Both the position numbers and the translations under genes were made by a program. A DNA stretch of 64,000 nt from Bryobacterales bacterium (GTDB lineage Bacteria > Acidobacteriota > Terriglobia > Bryobacterales > UBA6623): NCBI GenBank assembly GCA_022823865.1, contig JAJEHF010000002.1, positions 34,731 to 98,730 on the forward strand, in the 5' to 3' direction. Position 1 is the stretch's first letter; every line of letters begins with the position of its first letter. Below the pieces are notes generated by a model that saw only the letters and a program-made list of their open reading frames with translations, ran no database searches and had not been told where the DNA came from. Positions 2,920 to 24,247 of the stretch are shown here, in pieces.

Positions 2920-5058
2920 ATGCCTCGACACGCCTACCTGGGATCCCTCGCATTGATACTCTGCCTCGCCGGAGCCTCTGCGCCCAGCGCCAGCGCCGGA
3001 CCCGTCTCGGGCACCGATCTGCTTGGATCCTCCGAGAACACGAGCGACTGGCTGATGTATGGCCGCGACTACCACGCGCATCGTTACGTCGAACTCGACC
3101 AGATCACGCCGGATAACGTCGACCGGCTGCACCCGGCCTGGGTGTTCGCCACCGGCGGCGAGAATCGCGGCCTGCAAGCCACGCCGTTGATCCATGAGGG
3201 AGTGCTGTACCTCTCCGCGGACGGCTCGCGCGTGTTCGCGATCGACGCCAGAACGGGTGCCAAGAAGTGGGGTTACGATCCCGAGCTGTCTTCCGAGAGC
3301 GAGCGAGTCTACTGCTGCGGCTCGATCAATCGCGGCGTGGCCCTACTGGGCGATCTCGTTTACGTCGGAACGATGGACGCGCGCCTCGTTGCCCTCGACA
3401 AGCAGACCGGAGAAGTCGCCTGGGAGACACAGGTGATCGACTGGCGACAGGGCTACAGCATCACGGGCGCGCCCTTGGTGGTCAAGGACATGGTCCTCAC
3501 GGGTGTCGCCGGCGGCGAGTTCGGAATCCGCGGTTTCGTGAAGGCGTTCGACGCCAGCTCAGGTGAGCTGCGGTGGACGGCGTACACCATCCCGGGTCCG
3601 GGCGAGCCAGGCAACGAGACCTGGCCCGGGGACACGTGGAAGCACGGCGGGGCGCCAACTTGGACCACGGGCGTCTACGATCCGAACCTGGACCTGGTCT
3701 ACTGGAACACCGGCAACGCGGCGCCGTGGAACTGCCAGGTCCGCAAGGGCGACAATCAATGGTCGGCAGCCACGGTCGCGCTCAGGGCGGACAGCGGCGA
3801 GATCGCCTGGGGCTTCCAGTACACGCCGTGGGACTGCTGGGATTACGACGCAGTCAGCACGCCGGTGCTGGCCGACCTCGAGCTTGAGCGGCACGGGCCC
3901 GTCAAGGCCCTGTTCCATCACGACAAGAACGGATTCTTCTACGCCCTGGATCGCACCAACGGAAAGTTCCTCTATGGCGAGCCGATCGTGCCCGGCATCA
4001 CCTGGGCGCGGGGCTTGGACCCGGAGACCGGCCGACCGATCGTCAATCCAGACATGGTGGCCGAGTCGGGCGGGCCGGAGGTCGGCCCGATCATCCCCAG
4101 CCTGGAGGGCGCCATCGACTGGCAGCCGCTGTCCTACGACCCCGAACTCAAGGTCCTGTACTTCATGTCCAACCAATGGGCTATGGGCTACAAGTTCTGG
4201 GAGGAAGGCACGTTCCAGCCTCCGACGAACGGCGAGTGGTACTTGGGCGCGGACTACCAGCAATACCTGACCACCGACGAGCCCGGCAATTTCCTTGCCT
4301 TCGACGTCGTGGAACGCAAGATCCTGTGGCGCCAGACCAGCCCAGCGCCGTTCTGGGCCGGATCGGTGGCGACCTCTAGCGGCTTGGTCTTCACCGGCGA
4401 CATGCGGGGCTATTTCATGGCCCTGGACGCACGCACGGGCGACGTGCTGTGGCAATTCCAGACCGGCTCGGGAATCATCGGAAGCCCGATCACCTACGAA
4501 CTCGACGGGATCCAATACGTGGCCGTGCCGTCCGGGGGCATCGGCGGCGACATGACCTTCTATTACACCGAGCCGCGCGCGGGGAACCTTTGGGTGTTCG
4601 CGCTGGACGGCGGCGGCCCCGCGCAGGTGGCCCCCGGCACGAACCTCACCACGCTCGAGGGCGGACTGCCGTACGTGGGCGAGCCGGGCCACACGCTGGG
4701 CGGCCGCGTCCTGGCCGGCTATGGCTTCGAGCCGACCGAAGGGGGAGAACCGATCCAGACATCCGGCCCGCCGCAGCCGTGGTCAGCCGAAGCGGCGGCA
4801 GCGGCAGATCTTGGCGGATCCTTGGAATCCCCGGAGGACCTGCAGCGAGTGACCTCGGTTTTTCGAGCCCGCTGCATCGGCTGCCACAAGGTAGGCGGGG
4901 GCAGCGGGCCGAACCTGTTCCGCACCAGGCTCTCTCCGGGCGAGTTTGTCGCGCGGGTGCTTCAGGGCGGCAACGGCATGCCGACATTTCAAGACGTCTT
5001 GAGCGACCGGGACATCCTCGAGATCCACGCGCTCGTCGCCGCGCGGGACCGGCCCTGA
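2920..5058 (+). CDS. quinohaemoprotein PQQ-dependent alcohol dehydrogenase (methanol/ethanol family with C-terminal cytochrome c domain)
   Basis: ORF 2794..5058 trimmed to ATG 2920 (signal MPRHAYLGSLALILCLAGASAPSASA). It has propeller W-motifs, the vicinal disulfide VYCCGSINRG, the active-site stretch WDCWDYDAV and the C-terminal haem site CIGCH. Confidence 0.9.
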   Translation: MPRHAYLGSLALILCLAGASAPSASAGPVSGTDLLGSSENTSDWLMYGRDYHAHRYVELDQITPDNVDRLHPAWVFATGGENRGLQATPLIHEGVLYLSADGSRVFAIDARTGAKKWGYDPELSSESERVYCCGSINRGVALLGDLVYVGTMDARLVALDKQTGEVAWETQVIDWRQGYSITGAPLVVKDMVLTGVAGGEFGIRGFVKAFDASSGELRWTAYTIPGPGEPGNETWPGDTWKHGGAPTWTTGVYDPNLDLVYWNTGNAAPWNCQVRKGDNQWSAATVALRADSGEIAWGFQYTPWDCWDYDAVSTPVLADLELERHGPVKALFHHDKNGFFYALDRTNGKFLYGEPIVPGITWARGLDPETGRPIVNPDMVAESGGPEVGPIIPSLEGAIDWQPLSYDPELKVLYFMSNQWAMGYKFWEEGTFQPPTNGEWYLGADYQQYLTTDEPGNFLAFDVVERKILWRQTSPAPFWAGSVATSSGLVFTGDMRGYFMALDARTGDVLWQFQTGSGIIGSPITYELDGIQYVAVPSGGIGGDMTFYYTEPRAGNLWVFALDGGGPAQVAPGTNLTTLEGGLPYVGEPGHTLGGRVLAGYGFEPTEGGEPIQTSGPPQPWSAEAAAAADLGGSLESPEDLQRVTSVFRARCIGCHKVGGGSGPNLFRTRLSPGEFVARVLQGGNGMPTFQDVLSDRDILEIHALVAARDRP

Positions 5059-17816: not shown

Positions 17817-18629
17817 CTAACCGCCCGATGCCGCAAGCCCCTCGATGTCGACCCGGATCTCGTCCCACGGTGGCAGGCTCTGCAGGCTGCCCATGGCGGC
17901 CAGCGCCACGTCAACCTCCTTGCCGCCGTGAGGCGGCAAGGGGTCGCTGATCACCACTTCGAACGTCGCCAGCGGCGGGGCCTGCTGACTCGCCTCCCGC
18001 ACTCGAAGGAGCACTTGGACCGCTACCGACTGCGCCTCTCTGGAATGATTCGCCACGAAGGCCCGCACATGCGTCTGGAAGTCGTCGTCATAGTACGGCC
18101 GAATGCCCGAGATCTCGATCGGCCCGCGCACGCCGATCGCGAACGTTTCGACAGGCGACACGGCCATTTCGGCCGGATCTTCCAAGCGGAGCGCCGAGAA
18201 CAAACCGCCAGGCCCGGCAGACACCACGACCGCGACGCAGACGGCCAGCGCCACCGCGGCGCCGAACACGAGCAAGTGTTTGGTCTGGAGTTCGAAGGCT
18301 CCGCGCGGACGGCTCGCGGGCTGCGCGGCGGAAGCCTGCACCGGCTCAGCGGGAGTCTGCACCGGCTCGGCAGGAGTCTGAACCGGCTCGGCAGGAGTCT
18401 GAGTCGGCTCGGCAGCGACCGGTACCGCCGGATCGGGGGCCGGCTGCGGATCAGGGCGCGCCGGTGCCTCGGCCGGGGGCGCTTGCACAGGCTGTGTCTC
18501 GTCCCTCGGCGGCCCGGGGCTGTGCCGCGTGGCAGGCTCGGGCGCGGCGCCTCGCGCCGCACAGTGCGGACATGTGACTTCGGCTACATCGACGCTGCCG
18601 CCGCATTTCGGACAGACCCAGGTGAACAT
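17817..18629 (-). CDS. hypothetical membrane protein: zinc-ribbon, Pro-rich repeat linker, one TM, extracytoplasmic domain
   Basis: ATG 18629 inside ORF 17817..18668 gives MFTWVCPKCGG...CPHC (CxxC-x12-CxxC). Then come AEPVQTP repeats, the TM segment LLVFGAAVALAVCVAVVV and a ~130-aa C-terminal domain. Confidence 0.65.
   Translation of the reverse strand: MFTWVCPKCGGSVDVAEVTCPHCAARGAAPEPATRHSPGPPRDETQPVQAPPAEAPARPDPQPAPDPAVPVAAEPTQTPAEPVQTPAEPVQTPAEPVQASAAQPASRPRGAFELQTKHLLVFGAAVALAVCVAVVVSAGPGGLFSALRLEDPAEMAVSPVETFAIGVRGPIEISGIRPYYDDDFQTHVRAFVANHSREAQSVAVQVLLRVREASQQAPPLATFEVVISDPLPPHGGKEVDVALAAMGSLQSLPPWDEIRVDIEGLAASGG
18337..18420. repeat. four tandem 21-bp coding repeats
   Basis: ctgcaccggctcagcgggagt / ctgcaccggctcggcaggagt / ctgaaccggctcggcaggagt / ctgagtcggctcggcagcgac. 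They encode AEP(V/T)QTP heptads on the minus strand. Confidence 0.9.
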
Positions 18630-18972
18630 GCCTCTTCCATTGTGCAGCAATGCCTGTCCGGGAGGCACGGCGACCTGCGGCAGATCGAACGCAGTTCTGC
18701 CGGTCCAAGGCGCGGAAAACGACCTTGATATAGGGACTCATGACTTATATCGAGGAGTCGCGAGTCCTGTGACATACTGAAATCAAATGCAGCCAGCAGC
18801 AACATTGATGCGGTTTGCCTGTATTCCGGTGGCTGGGGCTCTTGCCGCCGAAGCGCTAACGTGGGCCGCTGGGCCGCGCGTTGCTTCAGAACCGTGTCGA
18901 GTAGTGGTTCGCCACTAGTCGATATAGGTCCCACATAACTCGATTCGGGCTCGGTCCGCAAATCTCCAGCCA

Positions 18973-20483: not shown

Positions 20484-21251
20484 TCACTGCAGCAACGTGC
20501 GCACAAGCGCAGCGTTGCGCTTACTCACCGTGTATTGCAAGCCGTTGACCAGCGTCAGCAGCCAGCGGCGACTGCTCAGCGAGCTGATGCGGCCGATCTT
20601 GTCGCTGTTGACAAGAACTGCCCTGTGCACCCGCAGGAAACTCGAGCCGGCCAGCTTGGACGCAATGGCTGTCAGCGTCTGCGTGGCACGGTAGCGCTTG
20701 TTCTGCGTTTGGATCCAGACGATCTCGCCCGAAGCCTGAAAGGCATAGACCTGATCGAGATCTATCAGCAAGAACTCGCGCCCGTGGCAGGCGACGATCT
20801 TCGAACTCTGCCGGCCGCGCTGAGCTGCGGCGTTGACCGTCCGCGCCACCCGCTCGGCGTTGTCCCGAGGATTCCTGTGGGCCCGCCGGGCCCTCTGGAT
20901 CGAGCGGTCGAGCCGCTCGACGCTGAACGGCTTCAACAAGTAGTCGACCGCGCCGATCTCGAACGCCTTCAGCGCGTGCTCGCTGTAAGCGGTCACGAAG
21001 ACGATCGAAGGCAGTTGCCCGCGGATACCGCGAACAACCTCAAACCCGTCACGGACGGGCATCTGGATATCGAGAAGCACCAAGTCGGGATGCAGCTCTT
21101 CGATCCGCTGCATCGCGGTCAGCCCGTTCTCAGCCTCGCCCACGATCTCGACACCCTCGATCTGGGTCAAGTCACGGCGTAGCACGTCGCGAGCAGCGCG
21201 CTCGTCGTCGACGATCAGAGTTCGCAGTGTCCGGGATGGCCCGTCGGGCAT
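20484..21251 (-). CDS. two-component response regulator, LytTR DNA-binding family
   Basis: Receiver domain (LIVDDE ... LLDIQMP) plus a C-terminal LytTR domain (FLRVHRAVLVNSDKI). Confidence 0.92.
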   Translation of the reverse strand: MPDGPSRTLRTLIVDDERAARDVLRRDLTQIEGVEIVGEAENGLTAMQRIEELHPDLVLLDIQMPVRDGFEVVRGIRGQLPSIVFVTAYSEHALKAFEIGAVDYLLKPFSVERLDRSIQRARRAHRNPRDNAERVARTVNAAAQRGRQSSKIVACHGREFLLIDLDQVYAFQASGEIVWIQTQNKRYRATQTLTAIASKLAGSSFLRVHRAVLVNSDKIGRISSLSSRRWLLTLVNGLQYTVSKRNAALVRTLLQ

Positions 21252-21543
21252 GCTGTCCGATGTTGTATCACGGCAGCCGCCTTACCACCGCGCACAACGA
21301 CGCGAACGGAACAATCAAGTCACTGAGCGGAACCCTAGCGCCTGTCGAGCGGGGCAGTCGGCTTGAGAGCGATGCGGGCGCCCGGTGCTGTCCGATCGTC
21401 GAAATGCGATCAAGACTGCACTGCCGTTCGGGCGGAGCGCGAACGCAGGTTCAAGACGCGGGATTGTAGGATCGCTCGTCAAATCGTGTAAGAGAGCGTA
21501 CGGAACCGGTTGATGGAATGACGATGCTACGTTTTATACATCT

Positions 21544-21577
21544 ATATACTAGACATGTGAAAGATCATATACTAAAC
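21544..21577 (+). promoter_or_regulatory. direct repeats in the AT-rich promoter region (candidate LytTR binding site)
   Basis: ATATACTAGAC (21544-21554) and ATATACTAAAC (21567-21577) are separated by a 12-nt spacer. The sigma70-like hexamers TAGACA-N17-TAAACT overlap them, and TATAAA lies at 21584-21589. Confidence 0.45.
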
Positions 21578-21641
21578 TAAACATATAAAGAACGATGATT
21601 TTACGAAATCAGAGTTGACTCTCAATCACTGGAGGATAAAC

Positions 21642-22142
21642 ATGAAAAGCAAGACTGACACACCTGCAGCAGCAAGTCAGAAATCCATGGTCGCTCTACT
21701 GATCCGCCTCGGGGCCGATCCGGACGAAGCGTATAATGCGACCGAGACCATGACGTCGGAAGCCAAGCGCGTCGCCCTAGAGCTCGTGGAGGGATCGAAG
21801 CTGCAGCTTCTGTCGCGCATCGAGGCGCTCCACGCTGCGCTCAAGGGCTTCAAGGCTGAAGTTGAGACGCGATTCGAAGCCGTCGACCACCGCTTCGAGT
21901 CAATCGAACGCGAGATGAGAACGGGCTTCAGAGGCATCGACCAGCGCTTCGATGGAATGGAGAGGCGGTTCGACGAAATGGAAAGGCGGTTCGACAGGAT
22001 GCAAGTCCAGTTCGATGGCCATCTCGCAAGCTATCGGAAGCTGCTCTTCCTGCTGGTTGCACCCGTTGCCGTAGCCATCACGGCTGGAATCGGAGCGATG
22101 CTCTGGAAGGCCATCAGCAGCGGGGCGACTGGCTTGCCGTAG
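21642..22142 (+). CDS. tail-anchored coiled-coil protein with RF(D/E)-type 11-residue repeats (DUF1640/XhlA-like architecture)
   Basis: ATG 21642 is preceded by GGAGGA with a 5-nt spacer (ggaggataaacATG). The repeats are ETRFEAVDHRF ESIEREMRTGF RGIDQRFDGME RRFDEMERRFD RMQVQFD. A C-terminal TM follows: LLFLLVAPVAVAITAGIGAMLW. Confidence 0.7.
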   Translation: MKSKTDTPAAASQKSMVALLIRLGADPDEAYNATETMTSEAKRVALELVEGSKLQLLSRIEALHAALKGFKAEVETRFEAVDHRFESIEREMRTGFRGIDQRFDGMERRFDEMERRFDRMQVQFDGHLASYRKLLFLLVAPVAVAITAGIGAMLWKAISSGATGLP

Positions 22143-22423
22143 GAAGCTGTTGCGGAATCCCGCGACCGGGCAGGCTCCTGGGCGGAATTGTAGACGCCCA
22201 GCTCGGCTCAGGCCTCTAACGAGACGCGAGAGCTGGCAAGTTGCACATTGCACAAATCGAATCGGCCGCCAAGCGTGGCTGACGCGAATCGCCAGCCACG
22301 ACCTGCCCGGTTCGATCTCGCTTCACCCCATTGCCCGAATAGCGTTCCGCGTGCGGCCACGGCAACAATCCGGTGAGTCCGGGCTCTCCGATTGGAAATC
22401 CGGACCGTGGAGCAATACCCTAG

Positions 22424-24247
22424 GTGGAGTCCGTGAATCACTTTCCGATCCTGCTGAACCTGCTGGGGCACACAGCCGGGATTACGGCCTTCGGGGCCTT
22501 CCTAGTGCTGCTCGTCCGGAGCCCGCGCCCGGATATCCGCGTGCCGGCAGCCGCAGCTGCGCTGGCGCTGTGCTGGAATCTCGGGTCGTTGACGGTGCTG
22601 CTGGCCGAGCCGGCGGGACAGTTCCAGGCTGCCATCTCGGCCCTGAGTCTAGCCTTCTTGAGCATGCTGCCCTGCACGCTGCTGCACTCGGCGCTCGGTA
22701 ACGAACATCGCTGGCTGTCAGCAGCCGGGTACACCGTTGGTGCGGCGGCGGTGACGATCCACGTCACGAACGCCTTGGGCGTGCCGGTCGCCAGTCCGGG
22801 CACGGGTCTGGCTTCGATCAACTATGGCTTCGGCTCCCTGTCAGTGATCGGCGCCGTGCTACTGGCGCGCGGCGGGTCCCGGCGGACGCGCTCGGGCATG
22901 CGGACGCTGGCGGCGATGGCGCTGTTCCTGCTGGCCCTTTCGTTTGTCCATTTTGGCCGCGCCCACGAGCCGGGAGCGTGGTTGCACGAATTGGTGTTCC
23001 ACCACGCCGGCATTCCGTTGGCCCTGTTCGTGCTGCTCCAAGACTACCGCTTCCTGCTCATGGACGTGTTTGTGCGGCTGGCCGGGTCGGTCCTGTTGGC
23101 AGCGGCGGTCGCGGGCACGATCCTATGGGTGGCAGACCTGCTGGGCCTGGTGCAGGCCGCCTCTGAGACCGCATGGGACTTGGCGGCATTCTTGGTGCTG
23201 TCCGGCTTGGCGATCTTGGCCTATCCCGCGATCGCTCAGCGCATGGGAGCTTGGGCGGAGAACAGCCTCTTCAGACGCAAGAACGTGCAGGACGCCACCC
23301 GCGCCGTCGGCGCGCTGGAAGCCGATGGCGAGAGTACCTTCCTGACGGGCGCGGGGGGAGTGATCGCTGAGTTCGTGTCCGCGGCGCATTGGGAGCTGTT
23401 GGGCGCAGACAGCAAGGTGCGCGTCGCGAAGCCAGAAACGATTCCCGCGCCGGGCATGGAGGCGCTCCACGCTGCTGGTCACGGCTGGAGCGAGGCCGTG
23501 GTGCCGCTGCGAGACGGAGTGGGAGCCCAGCGCCTCTTGCTGCTCGGCGCACGCGACGGCGGGCGTCGCTACCTGAGCGTTGATCTGGCCGATCTGGAGC
23601 TGCTCGCTACGGCAGTCGGCAGGCGGGTCGAGGCAATGCGTCGCGGGGAGCAGGATAGCCTGTTGCGCGATTCCGAGATCGCGGCGCTGCGGGCCCAGAT
23701 CAACCCCCACTTCCTCTTCAACGCCCTGAACGCCCTCAACGCGATCATTCCCGCGGGAGCTACGGCTGCCCGCAAGACCCTGTTGAACCTGGCTGACATC
23801 TTCCGCTACTCGTTGAGCAGCAAGCAGCAGCTCGTCTCGCTCGCCGACGAGATCGATATCGTGGAGGCCTACCTGCAGATCGAAAGGCTCCGCCTGGCAG
23901 ACCGGCTCACCGCGCGCATAGAAATCGACGAGCGGGTCCGGTTCAACCGAGTGCCGGCGCTGTCGATCCAGCCGCTGGTGGAGAACGCAGTCAAGCACGG
24001 CGTGAGCCGCAAGGCCGATGGCGGAGAAGTGCGGGTCTCGGCCCGCGAGGATTCGGGCGGGCTGCGCGTGGAGGTGGCAGACAACGGCCCCGGCTTCGAC
24101 ACGCAGGCCCAGCCAGGCGGCGGCCACGGGCTGCGCAGCGTCGAGCGGCGGCTGCAACTGTGCTACGAGGGAGCGGTGGAGTTTCGAGTCGAATCCGATG
24201 CTTCCGGATCCCGCGTCGGCTTCACTATCCCGGCCGCTGCACAATAG
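22424..24247 (+). CDS. sensor histidine kinase, LytS/YehU type (His_kinase PF06580 + HATPase_c), polytopic N-terminus
   Basis: About 8 predicted TM helices, then RAQINPHFLFNALNALNAII and an ATPase domain (LVENAVKHG, DNGPGF, GGGHGL). The start is GTG at 22424 or 22433. Confidence 0.9.
   Translation: MESVNHFPILLNLLGHTAGITAFGAFLVLLVRSPRPDIRVPAAAAALALCWNLGSLTVLLAEPAGQFQAAISALSLAFLSMLPCTLLHSALGNEHRWLSAAGYTVGAAAVTIHVTNALGVPVASPGTGLASINYGFGSLSVIGAVLLARGGSRRTRSGMRTLAAMALFLLALSFVHFGRAHEPGAWLHELVFHHAGIPLALFVLLQDYRFLLMDVFVRLAGSVLLAAAVAGTILWVADLLGLVQAASETAWDLAAFLVLSGLAILAYPAIAQRMGAWAENSLFRRKNVQDATRAVGALEADGESTFLTGAGGVIAEFVSAAHWELLGADSKVRVAKPETIPAPGMEALHAAGHGWSEAVVPLRDGVGAQRLLLLGARDGGRRYLSVDLADLELLATAVGRRVEAMRRGEQDSLLRDSEIAALRAQINPHFLFNALNALNAIIPAGATAARKTLLNLADIFRYSLSSKQQLVSLADEIDIVEAYLQIERLRLADRLTARIEIDERVRFNRVPALSIQPLVENAVKHGVSRKADGGEVRVSAREDSGGLRVEVADNGPGFDTQAQPGGGHGLRSVERRLQLCYEGAVEFRVESDASGSRVGFTIPAAAQ

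Follow-up and report, generated by a model that had tools for sequence, protein, structure and literature searches.

What is the small gene that lies between the divergently transcribed genes of a LytTR-type response regulator and a membrane histidine kinase in a Bryobacterales genome, and does it belong to their signaling system? We addressed this question in a 64,000-nucleotide stretch of contig JAJEHF010000002.1 (hereafter, the window), where the gene occupies positions 21642-22142 of the plus strand, stop codon included, and encodes a 166-residue tail-anchored coiled-coil protein. A sequence-only reading had described this protein as an array of 11-residue repeats with a membrane anchor, had noted a likeness to the DUF1640 and XhlA families without assigning it to either, and had considered a membrane-active or signaling role plausible from the adjacent regulator and kinase. 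We find instead that the repeat is a heptad array, and that the protein, as judged from its sequence, founds a small unannotated family of Bryobacterales-type Acidobacteria. The description that we favor, and in which we place about even confidence, is that of a clade-specific, cytoplasm-facing, homo-oligomeric tail-anchored stalk protein, i.e., a new family with a known architecture.

The gene is a real protein gene under purifying selection and no chance open reading frame (ORF) of a GC-rich genome, because it combines a ribosome-binding site (RBS), a conserved start, and a ratio of nonsynonymous to synonymous substitution rates (dN/dS) of 0.22-0.36, as obtained against seven orthologues where divergence was measurable. 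The RBS, GGAGGA at 21631-21636 on the plus strand, lies 5 nt 5′ of the ATG and is invariant in all eight aligned loci, and every homologue of the protein uses the same start Met. Both the ORF list and the sequence itself place the reading frame exactly where it had been reported, and the repeat sequence quoted earlier is present in the translation. Its numbering (residues ~85-135) was off, however: the string ETRFEAV starts at residue 75 of the 166-residue protein. A TTG at 21615 is a possible earlier start that would add nine residues, and the earlier numbers were thus probably counted from there.

The repeats gave a clear periodicity. Consecutive Phe residues in the protein are spaced by 8, 7, 11, 7, 7, 7, 7, and 12 positions, and self-identity at lag 7 amounted to 19 matches against 4.4 ± 1.9 expected, a value reached by none of 5000 shuffles. 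At lag 11, by comparison, we found 5 matches against 4.1 expected (p = 0.39 from shuffles), which is chance level, and this autocorrelation rules out the hendecad repeat. Nor does Phe keep the register of the 11-residue blocks into which the sequence had been divided, where it falls at block positions 4 and 11; 11; 7; 3 and 10; and 6. The repeat is a canonical heptad array with one stutter, far above chance. Across 380 heptads of the family, position g is Arg in 71% and a is Phe, with Asp or Glu at b (84%), Met, Ile, or Val at d (84%), and Glu or Asp at e (71%).

Along the protein, a first heptad array (residues 75-86, ETRFEAV DHRFE; 21864-21899, plus strand) is followed by a fixed 11-residue stutter that runs from F85 to G95 (21894-21926, plus strand), with F96 as the next core Phe and the only Phe spacing of 11. 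A second array covers residues 96-130 (FRGIDQR FDGMERR FDEMERR FDRMQVQ FDGHLAS; 21927-22031, plus strand). Copy number varies among family members in both arrays, whereas the length of the stutter is invariant in every member and its sequence, SIEREMRTGF, is largely kept (E89, R90, E91, R93, G95, and F96 are each at least 90% conserved). At the DNA level, Tandem Repeats Finder reports a 21-bp tandem repeat at 21944-21995 (plus strand; 2.5 copies, 87% matches) that encodes RRFDxME heptads. Under standard coiled-coil rules, a heptad with an a/d core and complementary charges at e and g is associated with parallel, in-register homo-oligomers. In known coiled coils, fewer than 10% of the core residues are aromatic (bioRxiv 10.1101/2021.02.01.429152). 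When the family profile over residues 59-104 was compared with the PDB, the sole solved-structure matches were to influenza haemagglutinin HA2, in its trimeric coiled coil; these were weak (E ~4e-3), have an F/V/L a-d pattern in common with the family, and most likely reflect convergence or similarity in repeat composition.

Differences between relatives come in whole repeat units. Homologues are 159, 166, 173, 180, 187, or 201 residues long; the array before the stutter measures 12, 19, 26, or 33 residues and the zone after it 37, 44, 51, or 58, in 11 combinations among 49 proteins. Within the same 49 proteins, heptad number differs in 58 pairs whose sequences outside the repeats agree to 97% or more (in some pairs, 100%). 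P0002, the relative closest to the window protein, is shorter by exactly one RRFDEME unit, or 21 bp. Given these near-identical pairs with differing counts, whole heptads are gained and lost fast and independently in the two arrays, with reading frame and coiled-coil phase always kept. A second 21-bp tandem repeat occurs elsewhere in the window, at 18336-18415 (3.8 copies, 91% matches), where it encodes TPAEPVQ within an ORF at 17817-18668 on the minus strand. The 283-residue product of that ORF combines a zinc ribbon at the N terminus with a linker rich in Pro and a transmembrane (TM) segment, and its homologues vary in length between loci (248-263 residues).

Conservation in the family peaks not in the repeats but in the two ends of the protein. 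The head (residues 13-50; 21678-21791, plus strand) comprises a short helix, a G-A-D-P turn, and the start of a long helix, and contains the invariant residues M16, L19, L20, L23, G24, A25, A30, Y31, E40, K42, and R43. At the other end, hydrophobicity and conservation delimit a TM anchor from L134 to W155 (LLFLLVAPVAVAITAGIGAMLW; 22041-22106, plus strand), which is the single hydrophobic segment of the protein (best 19-residue Kyte-Doolittle mean, 2.39) and is directly preceded by Y-R-K. Its invariant positions are L137, L138, V139, P141, A143, A145, I146, A148, G149, G151, and W155. Then follows an 11-residue tail (residues 156-166, KAISSGATGLP; 22107-22139, plus strand) with an invariant terminal P166. 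The hydrophobicity profile of the 166-residue protein contains no N-terminal signal-like segment. Since there is no signal peptide and the only TM segment ends 11 residues from the C terminus, the ~133 N-terminal residues most likely reside in the cytoplasm, in a C-tail-anchored topology. An AlphaFold2 (AF2) monomer model built from an alignment of 53 sequences predicts a short helix (residues 13-22) that a turn separates from a single helix spanning residues 27-147. The architecture proposed at the outset, a coiled coil followed by a C-terminal TM helix and a short tail, hence stands on heptad statistics, hydrophobicity, and the predicted helix alike.

To which family does the protein belong? 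Scans of Pfam and NCBIfam brought up no family near its cut-off. PF07798 (DUF1640; gathering score, 33.5 bits), PF10779 (XhlA; 34.7 bits), and DUF883 did not match the window protein in Pfam even at E ≤ 10. Profile scans of all 53 members yielded only sub-threshold generic coiled-coil families: neither PF07798 nor PF10779 was among the 25 families with the highest number of matching members at E ≤ 1, and DUF883 was absent. A PHROG scan returned phrog_6701, which has no known function, at 1e-11 and for the coiled-coil repeat part only; PADLOC gave nothing beyond generic coiled-coil noise; and tblastn of the protein against 50,697 phage records found no match. The earlier judgment that no family could be assigned thus held throughout the Pfam, NCBIfam, PHROG, and PADLOC scans.

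The 53 full-length homologues share 51-100% identity with the window protein. In the GTDB set with one genome per species, the family was found in six metagenome-assembled genomes (MAGs), all from Bryobacterales or Terriglobia, and named database matches come from organisms of that type. When 1.84 billion cluster representatives were searched exhaustively with a profile, four proteins matched at E ≤ 1e-30, while 3175 representatives from many phyla matched at E ≤ 1e-3 in the repeat region only. Among the latter, the remote homologue P0070 aligned over residues 12-159, head included (hhalign probability, 99%), and it has the TM motif LxVPVAxAIxxGxGxxxW in common with P0127, P0139, and the family. 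Because of these relatives, the family does occur, rarely, outside the clade; the true family is limited to Bryobacterales MAGs and a few metagenomic relatives. No common genomic context emerged from the loci of the remote relatives P0070 and P0286: the former is a 1.3-kb contig without neighbor genes, and P0286, an analogous tail-anchored repeat protein, is located among purine-synthesis genes.

The repeat itself is far more widespread. Among the 146 best repeat-only matches, 50 are also tail-anchored, and an RF(D/E) heptad stalk with a tail anchor is therefore a recurrent, undescribed architecture. Other repeat-only proteins with RF(D/E)xx[VIM]D units (P0061-P0206) carry a signal peptide and a later TM helix, or precede PD-(D/E)XK nuclease domains. 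The whole cloud includes DUF3782-type endonuclease stalks, proteins that are both secreted and anchored, and others that combine a DUF1640-like head with an ATKDD motif; none of these passes a Pfam cut-off. A newer Pfam entry, PF27742 (“CTXL_M”), shows faint precomputed matches to the RF(D/E) repeat, which the local Pfam models do not capture. Stalks filed under DUF3782, which stand N-terminal to PD-(D/E)XK endonucleases, and the wider RF(D/E)xxD proteins account for much of the 3175 repeat-only matches and have a heptad consensus like that of the window protein. Those stalks of this group that have been studied structurally are trimeric (PMC4786415). They differ from the window protein by a nuclease domain or by the lack of a membrane anchor, and the similarity, which is limited to the repeat, may stem from shared repeat ancestry or from convergence.

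We next turn to the genomic position of the gene. On its left lies the divergent response regulator (20484-21251, minus strand), with a receiver domain (PF00072, 1.8e-25) and a LytTR domain (PF04397, 2.7e-19); on its right, the membrane histidine kinase (22424-24247, plus strand), with a multi-TM sensor, the Pfam His_kinase domain PF06580, and HATPase_c. The kinase had been called LytS-like; it has no match to the 5TMR_LYT domain. In every family locus examined, the small gene lies between regulator and kinase, within a collinear block of enoyl-CoA hydratase, a hypothetical gene, gatB, regulator, small gene, kinase, a SurA-like gene, a gene for an HD/OB protein, and a short-chain dehydrogenase/reductase gene. 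Because the whole block is collinear in one narrow clade, this conserved adjacency carries little weight.

Outgroups proved more informative. The ~400-residue sensor region of the kinase forms a conserved family of its own across Acidobacteria, with 805 matches and orthologues down to 37% identity, and the small gene does not co-occur with the kinase over this phylogenetic range: five outgroup loci have the divergent regulator/kinase pair without it. Sensor identity to the window in these loci is 72% (L016), 68% (L012), 63% (L015), 57% (L013), and 42% (L014), and the gap between the two genes spans 402 bp in L016, 194 bp in L015, 131 bp in L013, and 451 bp in L014. Neither tblastn nor blastn detected relics of the small gene in outgroup intergenic DNA. 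The closest of the loci by sensor identity, L016, also shares the synteny from enoyl-CoA hydratase through gatB and regulator to kinase; between a point 26 bp outside the regulator start and another 7 bp short of the kinase start, its DNA shows no similarity to the window. Since the outgroups keep the pair, one of them with the wider synteny, without the gene, the gene is a later insertion and not an ancestral component. We accordingly read the small gene, together with ~1.1 kb of DNA, as a clade-specific acquisition into an older divergent promoter region; gene loss in all of the outgroups is the less parsimonious alternative.

The same gap is occupied in L012 by an rve-family integrase gene of an insertion sequence (IS) element (positions 3488-4501 of that locus), and a second transposase, of IS66 type, lies beside the regulator there. 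The regulator/kinase gap thus appears to tolerate unrelated insertions. Within the block, the small gene evolves fastest, with 51% identity where its neighbors keep 79-91%, and its GC content at third codon positions (GC3) is 0.72, against 0.82-0.84 for the neighbors. A search for mobile-element signs around it, namely flanking direct or inverted repeats and transposase genes, returned only short repeats of chance length. The hint drawn at first from the LytTR/LytS adjacency is weakened: the position is kept in all family loci examined, but outgroups retain the pair without the gene, and the link to the kinase is positional only. A literature search for a connection between LytTR systems and tail-anchored proteins found no paper.

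The DNA upstream of the gene is unusual in composition. An AT-rich island at 21459-21700 covers the promoter, the 5′ untranslated region (UTR), and the first codons, and nowhere else in the 64-kb window does the GC content of 100-bp windows fall below 45%; the island's minimum of 0.28 lies ~7 standard deviations (SD) below the mean of 0.65 (SD, 0.05). This suggests a foreign origin or a special promoter architecture. Within the island, a consensus scan (9 of 12 positions) identified a putative sigma-70-like promoter at 21550-21578 on the plus strand, with TAGACA as the -35 element, a 17-nt spacer, and TAAACT as the -10 element. In the most distant loci of the family, L001 and L004, the -35 element reads TTGACA or TTGACT at the same position, and the locus of the remote homologue P0070 (L017) has the same layout, with TTGACA-17-AAATAT, a UTR of ~50 nt, and GGAGGA. 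We infer that the small gene carries its own predicted sigma-70-like promoter. An 11-bp direct repeat, ATATACTAGAC / ATATACTAAAC, at 21544-21577 (plus strand; 12-bp spacer, starts 23 bp apart) overlaps the -35 and -10 elements; L001 and L004 do not conserve its second copy.

Other signals lie on either side of this promoter. The best sigma-70-like match of the region is on the opposite strand (21598-21625, minus; TTGAGA-16-TAAAAT, 10 of 12 positions), also inside the AT-rich island, and points to the regulator gene ~350 nt away; the island may thus have supplied a new regulator promoter too. Directly 5′ of the regulator start, a block at 21253-21274, CTGTCCGATGTTGTATCACGGC, recurs without change in the clade loci and outgroup L016, while L012 and L015 retain part of it as TTTTATCACG; this block probably serves the regulator as a promoter or 5′ leader of its own. 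On the kinase side, the 281-bp spacer that separates the small gene from the kinase (22143-22423, plus strand) contained no site in a scan for intrinsic terminators, and read-through into the kinase gene is possible. A GC-rich hairpin without a T run (22149-22166; GUUGCGG-AAUC-CCGCGAC) stands straight after the stop codon. The spacer folds somewhat better than its shuffles (z = -2.25; z = -0.30 for the 5′ UTR), and neither the spacer nor the 5′ UTR matches Rfam. The spacer also contains the motif TTGCACATTGCAC at 22241-22253 (TTGCAC twice, 7 nt apart), which is conserved in the closer loci L002, L006, L007, L009, and L010 and not in L001 or L004. Outgroups L012 and L016 have similar strings, ATTGCACATTGAAC and TGCAATGTTGCAAC, in the part of their intergenic DNA that is nearest the regulator, and the motif may serve the two-component system as a regulatory site.

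Could the small protein nevertheless be a clade-specific third component of a LytTR-type two-component system, a small membrane protein whose gene is transcribed together with that of the kinase and which tunes signaling? Its conserved TM helix would then touch the membrane domain of the kinase, or its head would tether the regulator. The gene always sits between regulator and kinase in the family, but in a neighborhood whose collinearity leaves that adjacency with little weight, and in a gap where L012 accommodates an unrelated IS element. It shares the strand of the kinase, 281 bp upstream and without a terminator-like site in between, and the invariant Pro, Ala, and Gly positions of the TM helix suggest specific helix packing; the kinase sensor and the divergent pair, however, predate the small gene by far and work in the outgroups without it. 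LytTR proteins bind direct repeats with spacers of 11-13 bp located upstream of the -35 element (PMC6193735), and the 12-bp spacer of the promoter repeat fits this range, whereas the repeat overlaps the predicted -35 and -10 elements rather than occupying the defining place, 4-11 bp ahead of the -35 (PMC6193735); in L001 and L004, the second copy is not conserved. A LytTR site at this repeat is possible but unsupported. At the P0070 locus there is no remnant of a regulator or kinase, though that contig is only 1.3 kb long. The LytTR regulatory systems HdrRM and BrsRM, each of which pairs a LytTR regulator with a membrane inhibitor protein, resemble the locus in that a small membrane protein is encoded beside a LytTR-family regulator; unlike in those systems, the window regulator has a receiver domain (PF00072 with PF04397) and a cognate kinase, and the small gene is divergent from the regulator and not operonic with it. 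On balance, we regard such a third component as unlikely. A bolder version would make the Phe-core stalk a length-tunable spacer, recruited as a LytTR third component by sponge- or marine-associated Bryobacterales, in which whole heptads gained or lost in the two arrays around the fixed stutter set the distance or register between the head and the membrane-embedded kinase and so tune signaling between strains, and it would place tail-anchored RF(D/E)xxD stalks in a large unrecognized “Phe-zipper” class; we give this only a slim chance.

The remaining explanations concern known families. The window protein might be a highly diverged member of the DUF1640/CCDC90 group (PF07798; MCUR1, CCDC90B, and prokaryotic relatives), i.e., a trimeric membrane scaffold built as head, neck, stalk, and anchor. 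The overall plan is indeed the same, in that a small head at the N terminus leads into a long coiled-coil stalk with a TM anchor at its C-terminal end, and P0248 and P0094, which have a DUF1640-like head with an ATKDD β-layer motif, use an RF(D/E)xxD stalk and an anchor as well. P0068, in which a hydrophobicity scan found no TM segment, matches positions 1-36 of PF07798 (E = 3.4e-4). Yet hhalign against P0248, P0094, and P0266 aligned the stalk repeat and the TM helix alone and never the head, so a DUF1640-type head was rejected. The motif [aliphatic]-A-T-K-[polar]-[DE] that marks the β-layer at the start of DUF1640 stalks (PMC4786415) is absent; the nearest string, Y31-N-A-T-E-T-M37, lacks the required Lys and acidic residue, and AF2 predicts a continuous helix there. 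The window stalk further departs from DUF1640 in that almost all of its a positions are Phe and its heptad number varies. With the profile silent for the window protein and outside the 25 families that match the highest number of members, membership in DUF1640 was not borne out, and even a highly diverged relationship strikes us as quite improbable. Least probable of all, in our estimate, is a membrane-active protein, either holin-accessory (XhlA-like) or pore-forming, whose oligomerized TM helices would permeabilize the membrane and which might be a mobile-element remnant. A conserved, small-residue-rich, Pro-containing TM helix would suit such a role, the coiled coil could drive oligomerization, the AT-rich island and lower GC3 suggest a foreign origin, and in XhlA, too, a coiled coil at the N terminus precedes a C-terminal TM helix. 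Against this, XhlA proteins are about half the size and are encoded in phage lysis cassettes, while no holin or endolysin gene, nor any other phage, lysis, or mobility gene, was found near the small gene, whose neighbors are gatB, the LytTR regulator, the histidine kinase, and the SurA-like gene. The XhlA profile and the phage records gave no match, the PADLOC hits are generic noise, and the weak phrog_6701 hit concerns only the coiled coil; purifying selection and an apparently strong, constitutive-type predicted promoter and RBS would also be odd for a lytic toxin. The XhlA kinship that had been considered is not supported.

We return to the tail-anchored stalk protein as the preferred reading. 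In this model, residues ~27-133 would form one long helix of heptads with Phe at a, Met, Ile, or Val at d, acidic residues at e, and Arg at g. By standard coiled-coil rules, such helices would assemble into a parallel, in-register homo-oligomer held by g-e′ salt bridges, giving a stalk of ~16 nm whose end away from the membrane would carry the small conserved head (residues 13-50), while the conserved Pro/Ala/Gly-rich TM helices would bundle in the membrane. Gain or loss of heptads around the stutter would shift the head-membrane distance in steps of ~1 nm. The gene would have arrived with its own AT-rich, sigma-70-type promoter between the older divergent regulator and kinase and then come under purifying selection. 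Its product would most likely act, by analogy with other bacterial tail-anchored coiled-coil proteins such as the DUF1640/MCUR1 type and ElaB/YqjD (PMC4786415, PMC6389858), as a membrane-tethered scaffold or adaptor stalk that is not ancestral to the two-component system. Borrelia Bdr proteins offer a partial parallel, being small inner-membrane proteins with a central, copy-number-variable array of short repeats and a C-terminal hydrophobic anchor, as in the window protein; their repeat sequence and periodicity are unrelated, and they form plasmid-borne paralogous families of spirochaetes. No similarity to Bdr turned up in our searches, none of which was aimed at it. ElaB, YqjD, and YgaM (DUF883) are small C-tail-anchored proteins that lack a signal peptide and consist of a helical part in the cytoplasm, a single TM helix near the C terminus, and a very short tail (PMC6389858), a layout that the window protein shares with its single TM helix at the extreme C terminus. 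Unlike it, ElaB-type proteins have ~100 residues and no tandem heptad arrays, and there is no sequence or profile similarity between them.

Several points weigh against this picture. The AF2 model has low confidence (pLDDT, 58; pTM, 0.25), as is expected for the monomer of an oligomeric coil. “Scaffold or adaptor” is a weak functional claim that names no binding partner. The strict position between regulator and kinase, together with the absence of a recognizable terminator, is also compatible with a functional link to the kinase. Finally, length variation of this kind is unusual for a cytoplasmic scaffold and would be easier to understand for an exposed protein.

For annotation, the practical outcome is that the small gene should not be labeled as DUF1640, as XhlA, or as a LytS/LytTR component. 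If the preferred reading is true, the family would provide a natural coiled coil with Phe at almost every a position, and its heptad-exact length edits would make it a compact system for the effects of stalk length and stutter on a membrane-tethered protein. As the repeat type occurs in thousands of unannotated prokaryotic proteins, one characterized example would help to annotate many of them.

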